Source: an uncultured Bacteroidales bacterium
Lineage (GTDB): Bacteria; Bacteroidota; Bacteroidia; Bacteroidales; UBA11471
DNA length: 64,000 bases
Assembly: GCA_947625885.1 (NCBI GenBank)
Contig: CANQQA010000007.1
Location: 26,555-90,554 of the forward strand
Direction of reading: 5' to 3'
The position numbers and the translations under genes are program-made. Numbering within the stretch: position 1 is the first letter of the stretch; every line of letters begins with the position of its first letter. The notes under the pieces were generated by a model that did not search any database, was not told where the DNA came from, and was given only the letters and a program-made list of their open reading frames with translations. Positions 38,265 through 62,669 of the stretch are shown here, in pieces.

Positions 38265-38309
38265 TAAGAAACGGGTGCGACGGCAAAACAGCGTCGCACC
38301 CGTTTCTTA
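38265..38309. terminator. bidirectional terminator
   Basis: 18-bp perfect stem TAAGAAACGGGTGCGACG / CGTCGCACCCGTTTCTTA between convergent genes. Confidence 0.88.
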
Positions 38310-38325
38310 TGAAATGATGCATCTC

Positions 38326-39063
38326 CTATTCTGCCTTTATATTGTACTTTATGAGCGCATCTTCAATGTGTTTTGATATATCTATACTCATTCTTGTTTT
38401 TGTATTTAAATCAGATAAATTAGAGTAAACGACTACGAGTCCATCTACTGAAGAATTATATGTAACACCAACGCCATAATCAACTTTGGGGTCAGCTATT
38501 TCTCCATAAAAATGAGCAAAAGATTTCGTATTCATATCTCCTTCTAACGTTAAATATCGCTCTGATAAAAAATTTTCCAACGAATAAGCGGCAGATAATT
38601 GGACAATTACACAACTTGACCTCAGTTTCCCGTTTTCAAACATATACCAATAATATGGCGCATTTTCATTACTGCTTTTGTATATTAGATATTCCAAATC
38701 AGAGATATACGGAGTACCATAACGGCTCCTTATCGTTTCCATCGATGCGCCAAAGTCCAAACAGGGTTCTTCATAAAGACTATATTTGGGTATCACTTCT
38801 ACATTGAATGATAGTCCGTGATCAGATTCTCGAACAATCGTTTTTCCCACAAATTGACTTTCAATTACTCCATTTGAAATCATTGCGACAAACTCGTTGT
38901 CAGACGACCAATTAAGATTGCTTACATTCACGCCTTGTATATTCTCGTTTTGAGAATGATACAAGGTGTAGGACATTTTAGATAACGATACATCTTCCTC
39001 GTTTTTGGAACACGACGCCATTGTAACAGCAGTTGCAATAGCCCAAAAGAACATTTTTTTCAT
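38326..39063 (-). CDS. hypothetical lipoprotein (AT-rich), N-terminal Ig-like (Big_2-like) segment
   Basis: Lipobox TMAS-C followed by SKNEED; WSSDNEFVA motif. Confidence 0.78.
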   Translation of the reverse strand: MKKMFFWAIATAVTMASCSKNEEDVSLSKMSYTLYHSQNENIQGVNVSNLNWSSDNEFVAMISNGVIESQFVGKTIVRESDHGLSFNVEVIPKYSLYEEPCLDFGASMETIRSRYGTPYISDLEYLIYKSSNENAPYYWYMFENGKLRSSCVIVQLSAAYSLENFLSERYLTLEGDMNTKSFAHFYGEIADPKVDYGVGVTYNSSVDGLVVVYSNLSDLNTKTRMSIDISKHIEDALIKYNIKAE

Positions 39064-39116
39064 TGTTAATTATTTATATGTTTTGTGCAATAGTGCCTCA
39101 CACTGCAACACACGCA

Positions 39117-39275
39117 CAAAAAACGTGAGTTGGCTCATAGTATCAGAGGTACTGCCATACCCACGCAACATACAAGCACAACCCACGCTATAACATGGGC
39201 GCTTTGTGCTTATTGATCCTTGTTGCGTTTGAAAATTGGCAGTTTTCTGATACAAGTTCAATAGCAAAAACGCTA
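39117..39275 (-). ncRNA. candidate structured 5' leader RNA, copy 1
   Basis: Five nested stems with G-U pairs on the sense strand; lies between a -7 box and the lipoprotein start; homologous to 59801-60055. Confidence 0.65.
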
Positions 39276-39314
39276 TTCTATGTAAAAAGTGTACCACCCT
39301 CCGGCAGTACAGCA

Positions 39315-39322
39315 CAAATATA
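39315..39322 (-). promoter_or_regulatory. -7 promoter box upstream of leader copy 1
   Basis: TATATTTG on minus strand. Confidence 0.6.
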
Positions 39323-59623: not shown

Positions 59624-59727
59624 TTTCTTGCTCAATGGCTTCCCCGCCCGAAGGCTCACTCTCCTTCGGGCGCGATTTTTATTTCCCTAATTTTAAGACG
59701 GGTATTGCAAATTTCAAAAATCGTCGC

Positions 59728-59735
59728 TATCTTTG
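59728..59735 (+). promoter_or_regulatory. -7 promoter box upstream of leader copy 2
   Basis: TATCTTTG, with ATTG 20 nt upstream as a possible -33. Confidence 0.6.
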
Positions 59736-59800
59736 CCCTTGCCGATCGCACCGCAGAAGCCCCGATCGCGGGGTACAGCGGGGCGGGGGCAAAGACATAA

Positions 59801-60055
59801 AAAGCGTTTACTTGACGTTTTGTTCTTGATATACAGAAATTCTCGCAAAATTTCATTTGGAGTCAAGGATAAAGCAACGGTAGATGCCCGTGGATATGTA
59901 ATAGTTTATTTTTTCGACCGCGTATTTCGGGAGAAATGGCGTCGAAACTGTTGCATATATAAGCGTGGGCTTCTGCGTTGCCGTCCAACTCCAAAAGGCA
60001 ATGCGAGAAGCCTCTGTATGAAGGACAGCAACAGGTACAGATTCCTACGCTTTTC
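59801..60055 (+). ncRNA. candidate structured 5' leader RNA, copy 2
   Basis: About 190-nt nested hairpin (59831-60019) with sense-strand G-U pairs; same loop motifs as copy 1 at 39117-39275. Confidence 0.65.
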
Positions 60056-60108
60056 GTTTAATAATAAATCGCCAACGAGGGGATGACCGCGGCAGGAGAA
60101 TACAAAAA

Positions 60109-60405
60109 ATGAACGAAAATTTACAAGCATTAATCCAAAATGTCTGTTCTGGATTTCCTACATACGATGTGGGGGTGAGCAATGTATTCGATCAGCGTAG
60201 ATTTGTTAGAATGGTTCACTATGCATGGAAACATGAAATTGGATTCCATCCAGACATGTTCAAAAACGCCCTAATGAAGACCGACTTATTTCATTCTCTT
60301 TCAGAAAACGAAATCGAAACTAAAGCATCCGAACTTTGTCTACAGGCTGACTTCGCAAAGTCAATGTTCCACGCTGCGTTTGACCTTGAAAATCTTACAA
60401 TCTGA
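60109..60405 (+). CDS. hypothetical protein (98 aa)
   Basis: ATG after an A-rich stretch, protein-like composition, 5 nt before the next gene; no family recognised. Confidence 0.7.
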   Translation: MNENLQALIQNVCSGFPTYDVGVSNVFDQRRFVRMVHYAWKHEIGFHPDMFKNALMKTDLFHSLSENEIETKASELCLQADFAKSMFHAAFDLENLTI

Positions 60406-60410
60406 TAATC

Positions 60411-62669
60411 ATGAAAACAACACTTCAAAAACTTGGGATACTGGCAGCGATGCTGCCGGTATCCCTGTGCGCTTCGGCGTATGACTTCGTGGCAGACGGC
60501 ATTGCCTACAAGATAACATCATTTACAGAGTTCGAATGTTCGGTAGTCGCCAACGACAGCAGCTACCGAGGCGATATTACAATCCCCGAAACCGTCTCTT
60601 TCAACGGCAGAACATTGACCGTCAAATCCATCGGAGACGAAGCCTTTTATCAGGACACAGCTCTGACATCGGTAACGATTCCCGCAACCGTTACAACGAT
60701 AGGGGACTATGTTTTCTGCGAATGCGTCAATCTCCAAACGGTAGCGCTTCCGGACGGTTTAACCGATATAAGCAGCTCCACTTTCTACGGATGTTCTTCG
60801 ATAGAAAGCATCGAACTGCCGGCATCGTTAACGGAAATAGGCGATCTTTGCTTTTCAGATTGTACCGCCCTGTCGAAAATCGAACTGCCGGCGGCAGTAT
60901 CGGAACTTCCATATGGATGTTTTAGCGGCTGTTCCAATCTGAAATATATGAACTTGGCAAACGTTGAAACAATTGGGGATTACGCATTTTCCGGTTGTAC
61001 TAATCTCGCCGAAGTGAAATTCGGGGACAAATTGCACTCTATTGAAAGATACGCCTTTCAGGCGTGCGGATTCGAGGAGTTCACGATTCCGAATAGCGTT
61101 ACTTCGATAGATTCCTATATATTAGAGGGCTGCGATAAATTGCAATCTTTTACACTGGGCAACGGTATTACGGAGATAAATAAGGATAATAATCCGATAT
61201 CCGGTTGTACCAATGTCAAGAAATTCATCATTGCAGACGGATCAGAATCTTTGACGTTTTTTGATGACGCCATATATAGAAGCGCCCCTTTTGAATATGT
61301 GTACATAGGTAGAGATATGGTTTCAAAAACTAAATACGGGATTCCGTGTTATGATCCTCCTTTTTATGATAACACGCATATAAAAACCGTCGAAATCGGG
61401 GAATTTGTAACAGACCTCCCTTGCTCCGGGAATTTTCTATATTATGGATTTTTTGAAAATTGTACCTCGCTCGATTCGATTAAAATTCAGGGTCTGCCAA
61501 CTATTCACTCTGACTTTGCAGCAGGGGACACCGCCCTTAAATACGTAGAAATTTCAAATAAAACGACGAAAATAGATTACAGAGCATTTTCCGGCTGCTC
61601 CTCTCTCGAAACAATCGTATTAAAAGCCCTAACGCCCCCGACTTATTATTACGGTTTCACTTCTGATCTATATCTCAATTGTCGGCTGCTTATTCCCGAA
61701 GGAACAGAGGCATTGTATAAAAATGCTTCGCCGTGGAACAATTTCTGGAATATCGTTGAAAGCCCGGAATGTTTTTCGGAATTTACGGTAGGAGACCTGA
61801 AATACACAATCATTACGGGAAATGAAGTCAGCGTTTCGATAAACGATTCAACCGGAAAACAGAACGTTCAGATTCCCTCGCAAGTCGAATATAATTCAAC
61901 GGTTTACAACGTCGTTTCCATAGCCGGAGAGGGTTTTGCAAATTCGACGGAATTGACGGCTATATCCCTTCCAAGCAGCATTAAGCGAATTGGGGAAAAT
62001 GCTTTTCAGGGGTGCGACAATCTCAATGTCGTCATTTCAAAAAATCCGGAGGCACCGATTACTTTCAAAGAAGTTTTCTCTCCGAATATCTATGAAACGG
62101 CGACCCTGTTTCTTCCCAATGGCAGAGAATCTTCATACGCAGCAGATACATATTGGAGCCTGTTCAAGAATATACGCCAATCGGAACTTGTTCCGATCGA
62201 TTCATTGAAATTCGAGGAGAAAGAACTGGCAATTAATCTGAACGAAAGCAAACAGTTGGTGCCGCATATCTATCCCGACAGCGCGTCCATTCAAAAACTC
62301 AAATGGACTTCTTCCGCCCCCGACATCGTATCGGTGGCAGATGACGGCACTATCGCCTCGAATACCCAAAAAGGCGAAGCGACTATCACGGCAACGACAA
62401 CCGACGGCACCAATATCTCCGACTCCATAATCGTCAAAGTCGGAACGGAAGCCGGTATCGGAGAGGTAATTTCAGAGAATGCAACCATCAGCGTTTCGGC
62501 AGAAAACAATACGATTGTCATAACGGAAAAACTCGCGGAACAAATCGTAAATGTGTACGACATTCAAGGGCGGCTCATCGCCACCACTACCCAAGACGTT
62601 ATAAAAAATCTTTCATCGGGATTTTATATCGTATCTGTCGCCGGTAAAACATTCAAAATTACTATTTAG
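60411..62669 (+). CDS. BspA-like leucine-rich repeat surface protein with Ig-like domain and probable T9SS C-terminal signal
   Basis: Signal peptide (ASA-YDF); LxxVxLPxxLxxIxxxxFxxC repeats; WTSSAPDIVSV (Big_2-like); C-terminal VYDIQGR..GFYIV..KITI. Confidence 0.9.
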   Translation: MKTTLQKLGILAAMLPVSLCASAYDFVADGIAYKITSFTEFECSVVANDSSYRGDITIPETVSFNGRTLTVKSIGDEAFYQDTALTSVTIPATVTTIGDYVFCECVNLQTVALPDGLTDISSSTFYGCSSIESIELPASLTEIGDLCFSDCTALSKIELPAAVSELPYGCFSGCSNLKYMNLANVETIGDYAFSGCTNLAEVKFGDKLHSIERYAFQACGFEEFTIPNSVTSIDSYILEGCDKLQSFTLGNGITEINKDNNPISGCTNVKKFIIADGSESLTFFDDAIYRSAPFEYVYIGRDMVSKTKYGIPCYDPPFYDNTHIKTVEIGEFVTDLPCSGNFLYYGFFENCTSLDSIKIQGLPTIHSDFAAGDTALKYVEISNKTTKIDYRAFSGCSSLETIVLKALTPPTYYYGFTSDLYLNCRLLIPEGTEALYKNASPWNNFWNIVESPECFSEFTVGDLKYTIITGNEVSVSINDSTGKQNVQIPSQVEYNSTVYNVVSIAGEGFANSTELTAISLPSSIKRIGENAFQGCDNLNVVISKNPEAPITFKEVFSPNIYETATLFLPNGRESSYAADTYWSLFKNIRQSELVPIDSLKFEEKELAINLNESKQLVPHIYPDSASIQKLKWTSSAPDIVSVADDGTIASNTQKGEATITATTTDGTNISDSIIVKVGTEAGIGEVISENATISVSAENNTIVITEKLAEQIVNVYDIQGRLIATTTQDVIKNLSSGFYIVSVAGKTFKITI

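Follow-up and report, generated by a model that had tools for sequence, protein, structure and literature searches.

Two alternative, covarying folds in an apparently undescribed family of leader RNAs from Bacteroidota

The stretch analysed here (the window) comprises 64,000 nucleotides (nt) of contig CANQQA010000007.1 from an uncultured Bacteroidales bacterium and contains two copies of a structured RNA element, termed W2 (window positions 59800-60058, plus strand) and W1 (39115-39277, minus strand; located via the motif CAAGGATMAA). The family that they represent is a real and abundant class of leader RNAs in Bacteroidota and their phages and is apparently undescribed. Its members have two folds, a long rod (State I) and a pair of hairpin domains (State II), and both folds covary; the spacing of promoter, U-run and start codon and the identity of the folding strand are likewise supported. 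Judged from sequence, the leader is best read as a putative bistable transcription attenuator, an assignment that we favour with moderate confidence.

A rod-shaped fold shared by two leaders

An earlier note on this DNA had claimed that W1 and W2 share nine motifs in a fixed order, that the four stems between them (P1-P4) differ in sequence and still pair, and that the internal loop between P1 and P2 (AA opposite RCC) is kept. All nine motifs were found in the claimed order in both copies, RNAfold recovered the four stems in each, and the internal loop is preserved in both. The stem strands given by RNAfold are listed with W2 before W1.

P1 stem: ATACAGA/TCTGTAT in W2, GTATCAGA/TCTGATAC in W1
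P2 stem: TTCTCGCA/TGCGAGAA in W2, ACTGCCA/TGGCAGT in W1
P3 stem: TTTGGAGT/ACTCCAAA in W2, ACGCAACA/TGTTGCGT in W1
P4 stem: GCAACGGTAGA/TCTGCGTTGC in W2, ATAAGCACAA/TTGTGCTTGT in W1

The long-rod fold has an energy of -100.2 kcal/mol in W2 (z -7.9) and -68.7 kcal/mol in W1 (z -6.4), values equalled by 0/200 shuffles. The likeness of the two copies is far beyond chance because the same pattern recurs in about 150 further instances. As had been anticipated, BLAST misses the kinship of W1 and W2, and the same was confirmed for hidden Markov model (HMM) searches.

Covariation of the rod was examined on three alignments, consisting of 30 matches from relatives, 38 named loci and 16 from other orders or classes, all fitted to the structure of R1, a covariance model built from five paralogues of this genome. 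On these alignments, which are biased towards the structure used for fitting, rod pairs were formed in 94.3%, 91.4% and 90.0% of cells, respectively, compared with 34-46% in slid controls. Changes on both sides were present in 59/69, 59/69 and 58/67 rod pairs, and 0/500 shuffles reached the rod values. RNAalifold independently predicted P1-P4 as well as the apical pairing a:b (described below) on the three alignments. At nearly every position of P1 and P3, all four Watson-Crick pair types occur with almost no mismatches. The rod covariation thus bears out the claim that the RNA is structured and its stems are compensatory. In a count over 4328 paired cells of this kind, G.U was found 536 times and A.C 70 times; therefore, the folding strand is the sense strand read from the promoter, and it folds as RNA.

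A second fold drawn from the same strands

Four short segments recur in the element: d (AAAGCGU) at the 5' end, a (GCUCAYGC), b (AGCGUGGG) and c (CCCACGC), the last standing just before the U-run. Segment b can pair either with a, as in the rod, where two G.U wobbles are conserved, or with c in a perfect Watson-Crick match. With the latter pairing, AGCGUGGG/CCCACGCU closes the 3' half into a terminator-shaped hairpin that abuts the U-run. The parts of the two elements map to the following positions.

59800-59809 (+): W2 segment d AAAAGCGTTT, at the 5' terminus of the element; its State II partner is a', its rod partner the linker or c
59831-59847 (+): W2 P1 5' strand (59831-59837), AA loop, P2 5' strand (59840-59847)
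59856-59884 (+): W2 P3 5' strand (59856-59863), CAAGGATAAA (59864-59873), P4 5' strand (59874-59884)
59886-59893 (+): W2 segment a GCCCGTGG, 5' strand of the apical stem, rival of c for b
59894-59959 (+): W2 apical insertion, a variable extra hairpin missing from W1 and short-type members
59961-59970 (+): W2 segment b AAGCGTGGGC; partners are a (rod) and c (terminator-like fold)
59972-60019 (+): W2 3' strands of P4 (59972-59981), P3 (59988-59995) and P2 (60002-60009), then GCC and the P1 3' strand (60013-60019)
60044-60054 (+): W2 segment c CCTACGC, then the T-run (60051-60054); 3' strand of the terminator-like b:c helix
39115-39277 (-): W1 element, short type, with its T-run at 39118-39123
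39266-39276, 39194-39200, 39182-39189 and 39124-39129 (-): W1 segments d, a, b and c, respectively
39246-39253/39140-39147 and 39237-39243/39151-39157 (-): W1 P1 and P2
39221-39228/39163-39170 and 39204-39213/39172-39181 (-): W1 P3 and P4

The b:c duplex has a median energy of -15.65 kcal/mol, compared with -8.2 with shuffled tails, and the cognate b:c beats the mean non-cognate in 64/74 instances (6/80 were dropped, the segments being too short). Compensated variants of b and c occur as GGGGUGG/CCACCCC, GUGCGGG/CCCGCAC, GCGCGG/CCGCGC, AGGUGCGAGU/ACUUGCACCU and GGACGC/GCGUCC; in the member that carries the last of these, a and c are an identical 9-mer.

The two halves of the element were folded separately for W1, W2, a paralogue, one member of another family and one of another class, and a common architecture emerged in 5/5. 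The 3' halves (-32.7 to -36.9 kcal/mol, z -3.8 to -5.6) are closed by b:c directly before the U-run and hold an inner hairpin, GGGYGU-UUGGCG-AURCCU. The 5' halves (-15.0 to -27.4 kcal/mol, z -1.6 to -4.9) are closed by d pairing with the sequence just before a, termed a', and contain UAUCCUU/AAGGAUA together with a GAAAA-UCGCCAA-UUUUC hairpin. According to these models, no conserved 'internal loop' of the rod stays unpaired in State II, and the two P2 strands become complementary hairpin loops. The conserved loops emphasised in the earlier note are not simply binding sites; they pair mutually in a second covarying fold.

The alignment of the 30 matches from relatives had been fitted to the rod and is hence free of bias towards State II. 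On this alignment, State II pairs were formed in 81.5% of cells compared with 44-58% when slid, and the hairpin H3 (GGGYGU/AURCC) was paired in 95.6%, its pair 228:239 being UA in 22 sequences, CG in 7 and another combination in 1. For the 38 named loci, which had been chosen with a pattern that leaves Y and R free, the Y/R tally of H3 counted from the printed alignment was T/A 23, C/G 13, T/G 2 and C/A 0. When 23 diverse 3' domains were aligned with MAFFT, blind to structure, 88.7% of cells were paired for State II versus 41-62% when slid, with 10/21 State II pairs changing on both sides. Resolved by helix, this alignment was 88.4% paired for b:c, 94.7% for P4-3'/P0b-3' (pair 23:70 being CG 11, UA 8 and AU 2) and 85.6% for H3.

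The two folds are mutually exclusive, because H3 uses the P2 3' strand (UUGGCGA) and because a and c share b. The helices that swap partners are conserved in sequence while P1 and P3 vary freely, since P1 and P3 exist only in the rod. The family is thus a naturally occurring example of covariation revealing both of two alternative folds, and yields a clear rule by which partner-swapping helices stay conserved in sequence and single-state helices are free to vary.

Membership, neighbouring genes and distribution

Two further covariance models were used, R2 from 14 short-type members of other genera (a MAFFT/RNAalifold alignment with 27 pairs only) and R3 for searches with the 3' domain; W1 and W2 were scored with models built without them. 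W1 is a clear member (R2 73.4 bits, E 8e-15; R3 39.9 bits, E 6e-7; nhmmer E 1.9e-15). W2 scored weakly with R1 (9.9 bits; E was 3.3 over the whole window and 0.025 over a 501-nt region, a spurious 10.9-bit match appearing in the latter too) and with R3 (15.5 bits, E 0.25 in the window, spanning exactly 59959-60057 with b:c aligned), and gave no match with R2 or nhmmer. Its features include the P2 strands UCUCGCAAA / UGCGAGA, the junction AGGCAA and the 66-nt apical insertion; in the R1 alignment, P1, P2 and P3 of W2 are in register. A paralogue of W2 in the same genome (G000:C8:42249-42515; BLAST E 1.9e-9 and 1.5e-7; R3 24.1 bits) has identical P2 and P4 and a P1 and P3 changed with compensation, and a relative in another species (locus L019) scored 41.8 bits with R1. 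By its motif order, geometry and bridging sequences, and not by model score, W2 is accepted as a member of the family, in which it represents a divergent long subtype. RNAalifold on a four-sequence alignment of this subtype, in which MAFFT misaligns the variable stems, returned b:c and did not return the rod. At the H3 site, W1 reads GGGUAU-GGCA-GUACCU, and W2 and its subtype read AGGCAAUGCGAGAAGCC, where only GGC/GCC is kept; when the 3' half is folded by itself, this site has the 3' strand of P4 as its partner instead.

This 2.3-Mb genome (G000) holds about 12 copies, W1 and W2 among them. A loose motif scan of the whole genome identified five more, each upstream of a paralogous BspA-type protein, and further copies at C11, C2, C8, C1 and C18 were detected with nhmmer and the models.

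C3:6099-6296 (+), C18:29030-29229 (-), C25:18528-18726 (+), C28:7067-7266 (-) and C32:8168-8368 (-): the five paralogous leaders

These five cassettes of a leader plus a BspA gene with leucine-rich repeats (LRR) are about 92% identical, flanks included, and nearly all differences lie in P1/P3 and are compensatory. P1 is wholly different and yet perfectly complementary in each of the five, and P3 comes in three versions. In the copies of two sister genomes (G008 and G009), P1 is the same as in the counterpart, being stable between species and distinct between paralogues. This pattern of P1 points either to selection for stems that are specific to each copy or to homogenisation of the remaining sequence.

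Searches with R1 were positive in 14/41 related genomes and 10/31 genera, with up to 14 matches per genome. A scan of genome contigs for GGGYGTTTGGCGATRCC, the 17-mer with the highest conservation, gave 80 loci, 38 of which have the full element (R1). The 17-mer loci include Odoribacter, Coprobacter, Parabacteroides, Bacteroides, Prevotellaceae, Muribaculaceae and Alistipes, and further Dysgonomonas, Paludibacteraceae, Lentimicrobiaceae, Maribellus and a metagenome-assembled genome (MAG) of Tenacibaculum. Candidate carriers in culture, going by the names of the records, are Coprobacter secundus 177, Parabacteroides hominis NSJ-79, Bacteroides timonensis AP1, Xylanibacter rodentium PROD, Dysgonomonas sp. 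BGC7 and Maribellus sediminis. R2 found the family in 21/151 genomes sampled across the phylum, including other orders and 4 genomes of other classes; one genus was positive in 7/7, and two large families in 0/31 and 0/22. On IMG/VR viral contigs, 62/80 loci with the 17-mer carry the element (R2), while BLAST of W1 against INPHARED phages and PLSDB plasmids gave no match. The confinement to Bacteroidales supposed in the earlier note does not hold, as the family also occurs in further orders and classes of Bacteroidota and on viral contigs. Full elements on MAG contigs labelled Bacilli (2.9 kb) and Kiritimatiellae (L115 and L106) are most likely mis-binned Bacteroidota DNA and not spread to other phyla.

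Many elements are located no more than a few hundred bases from the end of a contig (for example in G025 and G019, and at G000:C11:600-764), probably because the paralogous surface-protein genes behind the leaders break assemblies; copy numbers in draft genomes are therefore lower bounds. In genus g36, which belongs to another order and was positive in 7/7 sampled genomes, the element stands 200-300 nt upstream of an orthologous secreted protein with the start MN.FSFYKDGK at all 5 fetched loci (L171, L173, L176, L177 and L192). Usage in this genus is conserved and chromosomal, not that of an accessory cassette.

The geometry of the element was measured on 80 distinct instances. A TAnnTTTG box, the consensus named in PMC11697453, occurs within 130 nt upstream in 67/77 instances with enough flank, 59 of these at 20-79 nt, and the median distance is 52. 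A T-run of at least 4 marks the 3' end in 76/80. The distance from T-run to ATG has a median of 56 nt (41/71 within 30-69 nt), and a same-strand open reading frame (ORF) starts within 400 nt in 75/80. The proposal that the element is a 5' leader and that its matches are oriented upstream of genes is in agreement with this position between promoter and start codon. In the window, the start codons stand 55-56 nt after the T-run, at 60109 for W2 and 39063 for W1, and the neighbourhoods are arranged as follows.

59645-59672: terminator of the gene upstream of W2, after which the W2 promoter box comes
59728-59735 (+): -7 promoter box of W2, TATCTTTG, of Bacteroidota type, read in the sequence
60109-60405 (+): first ORF downstream of W2, 98 amino acids (aa), no Pfam family and no signal peptide, between the leader and the BspA-type gene
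60411-62669 (+): second gene downstream of W2, 752 aa, a BspA-type LRR / Big_2 protein with a C-terminal sorting domain of the type IX secretion system (T9SS)
39315-39322 (-): -7 promoter box of W1, TATATTTG
38326-39063 (-): gene downstream of W1, 245 aa, lipoprotein-like signal peptide, no Pfam family

Just 3' of the gene behind W1, a hairpin plus T-run at 38266-38305 (-), scoring 17 bits with R3, looks like the gene's own terminator.

Among downstream ORFs, 53/75 encode a hydrophobic N-terminal stretch, a raw count without genome baseline. Pfam searches of 58 downstream proteins identified 10 with LRR_5, 4 with a T9SS tail and 2 with a histidine kinase domain, and beyond these found singletons or no family; the remaining products are lipoproteins, small membrane proteins, kinases, nucleases or of no family. 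The downstream genes are thus not only the surface-protein cassettes supposed in the earlier note, BspA-type LRR proteins making up 10/58 scanned. The downstream theme is one of accessory, often exported or defence-type, single-gene cassettes. On viral contigs (L197-L276), 24/59 downstream ORFs encode a single family of about 356 aa resembling HSDR_N endonucleases (phrog_4225), and others encode one Mrr-type restriction enzyme, lipoproteins and small membrane proteins. These gene assignments suggest that in prophages the leader may often gate defence-like morons.

With gathering thresholds, the window gave no match to any Rfam 15 family. For W1 and W2, relaxing the cut-off to E 10 yielded only noise, including no significant BTnc match, and at E up to 0.1 in 19 member loci nothing fell on the element. 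The claim of a new family is upheld by covariance-model searches that find members in Bacteroidota genomes and viral contigs, with no Rfam 15 match. Full-text literature searches, in which the supplementary sequences of catalogues were not compared, found no published description of the leader family. Two catalogues, PMC8040213 (Fremin & Bhatt 2021) and a 2026 genomic-language-model atlas, report palindromic candidates from Bacteroidetes, 106-132 nt long, along with many motifs of the 5'-leader type. The leader family could be among their unnamed candidates; no matching sequence or description was found in their text. The leader resembles 6S RNA, a long irregular hairpin of about 180-200 nt, in size and shape. 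Identity with 6S RNA was rejected, as there is no Rfam 6S match and the rod has several small internal loops and no single large central bubble; unlike 6S RNA, the leader is multi-copy, immediately precedes genes and can adopt an alternative fold.

Attenuation and competing explanations

Attenuation is proposed because the leader has a helix followed by a U-run and a competing fold that sequesters one strand of this helix. The family consists of widespread 5' leader RNAs of 140-260 nt; each is transcribed from its own TAnnTTTG promoter and is followed, after about 56 nt, by the start codon of an accessory gene. In State I, the RNA would form the rod of P1-P4 plus the apical a:b, in which a holds b (AGCGUGGG) and c (CCCACGC) is left free. 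In State II, it would form two hairpin domains, with d:a' closing the 5' domain and b:c closing the 3' domain in front of the U-run in the shape of an intrinsic terminator. The loops of the rod would here pair mutually (5' domain, GAAAA/UUUUC; 3' domain, GGGYGU/AURCCU) in small stems that display UCGCCAA and UUGGCGA. State II may then halt transcription before the gene, the rod would give read-through, and the balance between the states may be set by a loop-loop contact of P2 or by a factor that binds the P2 loops.

The organisation recalls known attenuators. According to PMC5314783, PASIFIC predicts riboregulators with a terminator and an antiterminator. Like riboswitch platforms, T-box leaders and protein-dependent attenuators, the element is a 5' leader with two exclusive folds that share strand b and with a G+C-rich helix plus U-run. 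It differs from terminator/antiterminator riboregulators in having no aptamer-like junction or known ligand or protein, in an antiterminator that would be a 35-60-bp rod spanning the whole element, in an OFF state made of two hairpin domains with complementary loops, and in target genes that share no pathway. CopA/CopT and RNA I/RNA II are antisense-RNA systems that use kissing loops. Similarly, the leader hairpins show perfectly complementary loops of 6-7 nt, UCGCCAA / UUGGCGA, that could nucleate an extended duplex; unlike in CopA/CopT, both hairpins are on one molecule, the extended duplex would be the rod, and a kissing step is what we infer.

RNA-library contigs from two studies cover 59781-60054 more deeply than the upstream gene, and two of them stop at 60044 and 60054; among the RNA contigs of four runs, none covers 60060-61300. 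The ends near the U-run of W2 and the lack of cover beyond it, which by itself proves nothing, give a weak hint of termination, as these are assembled contigs that may include DNA or paralogues.

Several points weigh against an attenuator. Assembled RNA contigs cannot show true ends or levels, and both termination and switching are inferred. The summed stability of the two halves falls short of that of the rod by 16-36 kcal/mol, and State II would therefore have to be kinetic or depend on a stabilising factor. For an intrinsic terminator, it is unusual that the terminator-like stem encloses inner helices of about 60-70 nt, and the stem goes uncalled in a simple terminator scan; T-runs reach a length of only 4 in 28/76 instances, W2 included. 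Pairing of d with c covaries somewhat (51/74), and if it closes the rod against the U-run, the rod might terminate too. The support for State II is weaker in the 5' domain, where 76-83% of cells are paired and z ranges from -1.6 to -4.9, and the hairpin H5 of this domain consists of A/U pairs only and cannot covary. Related sequences are not independent, and the shuffle tests therefore overstate significance. Finally, all three models score W2 poorly.

A broader version of the attenuator, which we put forward tentatively and consider rather doubtful, would make the element a phylum-wide 'cassette leader', a module of promoter plus bistable RNA that gates accessory, surface, defence and phage-moron genes. 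Intramolecular kissing of the invariant P2 loops would turn OFF (two hairpins, with the terminator) to ON (the rod), and P1/P3 would serve as cis address codes. These codes would permit zippering in cis only, such that dozens of paralogues could share one signal in trans, possibly a protein, a small RNA or the terminated RNAs of other leaders, without cross-pairing.

The element could instead be chiefly the gene of a stable small RNA (sRNA) that ends at the U-run and acts in trans, for example through the UCGCCAA/UUGGCGA loops on further members of the family or on other mRNAs, control of the neighbouring gene being secondary. This is unlikely in our estimate, and a dual-function version of it overlaps with the attenuator. 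An own promoter, a terminator-shaped 3' end and RNA-library contigs over the leader and not over the downstream ORFs would all suit an sRNA, as would the presence of multiple copies in which the loops are conserved throughout and P1/P3 are copy-specific. Multi-copy sRNA families are known in Bacteroides; PMC11697453 describes FopS/GibS as multi-copy Bacteroides sRNAs with canonical promoters and a reported phage-borne copy, the FopS RNAs being about 65-70 nt long, restricted to Bacteroidaceae and acting in trans on susC mRNAs through a 5' seed. The leader family shares with FopS/GibS, so described, multiple copies in Bacteroidota, a promoter and phage copies. Identity with them was rejected on length (140-260 nt for the leader versus 65-70 nt) and other properties, compared by description only. 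Against a free-standing sRNA, the spacing to the ATG is fixed (median 56 nt) with no room for a second promoter, none being seen in the copies read, and a same-strand ORF start follows within 400 nt in 75/80. No stand-alone 3' domains exist in this genome, 9/9 R3 matches lying inside full elements.

It is also improbable that the element acts as a static rod only, be it as a protein platform, an mRNA stabiliser, a processing site (for example for RNase III) or a means of translation control, with State II a by-product of symmetry. The rod is by far the most stable fold and has the strongest covariation, and P2 and the junctions are conserved in sequence as is often seen at protein sites. A static rod does not account for the Y/R covariation of H3, whose two sides belong to different internal loops in the rod and are kept from touching by the intervening 8-bp P2. 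Nor would it explain that b:c and helix M covary on the structure-blind alignment or that the T-run follows c in 76/80.

Two more readings carry very little weight. In the first, the element would be a repeat at the DNA level, either a palindrome like a miniature inverted-repeat transposable element (MITE) or enterobacterial repetitive intergenic consensus (ERIC), or a recombinase or inversion site, with only incidental hairpin potential. ERIC, repetitive extragenic palindromic (REP) and MITE sequences are multi-copy imperfect palindromes in transcribed intergenic regions and have compensated stem changes. The leader resembles them as a multi-copy imperfect palindrome with compensated stems and terminal inverted motifs (AAAGCG...CGCTTT); it is often near contig ends and on viral contigs, and strong copies retain a score of about 29 bits when read on the reverse strand. 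Unlike them, it has a fixed orientation relative to promoter and gene, strand-specific G.U pairs (536 versus 70 A.C) from which one strand folds, and a core conserved across the phylum. Copies within a genome are highly diverged and yet compensated, showing no sign of recent transposition, and no consistently adjacent transposase or invertase was noticed, albeit without a systematic adjacency survey. DNA inversion between b and c or d and c was rejected, as 80/80 assembled instances are in the rod arrangement and b-c is never inverted, in assemblies and not population reads. The second and least credible reading is a self-cleaving or processed RNA in which b:c builds a catalytic or processing fold and cleavage makes the 3' end near the U-run. 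Small ribozymes typically occur as structured RNAs in many copies ahead of diverse genes and phage genes, a placement that the leaders share, and RNA contigs stop near c; against this, no Rfam 15 ribozyme matched even at E up to 10 and the two folds account for the element with no conserved unpaired core left.

Gut microbiomes are dominated by Bacteroidota, for which few cis-acting RNA regulators are known. The leader family is abundant (up to 14 matches per genome) and old (several classes of the phylum), and it fronts the most strain-variable genes, namely those for BspA-type/T9SS surface proteins, lipoproteins, nuclease-type defence and phage accessory functions. If the attenuator is indeed a switch, these genes would form a shared accessory-gene regulon, with a new handle on their silencing and expression, prophages included. 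The leader could also become a compact regulatory part for Bacteroides engineering.

Additional copies of leader motifs were seen 5' of some elements. The gap between promoter and element holds a copy of W1's own P2 5' strand, GUACUGCC, in W1 (39296-39312), and a near-copy of the P2 3' strand plus junction (GCAGAAGCC; GGCGAUAC) in W2 (59737-59790) and the five paralogues. Such copies are possible decoys for kissing loops; as a feature of the family the decoy was rejected, being present in W1, W2 and the five paralogues but in 0/5 other members viewed. Two short-type members (L026:790-838 and L015:395-420) carry an extra AAAGCGTT-like and/or AAAAUCGAAAU motif just 5' of the element, and these motifs look like a partial duplication of the 5' domain.

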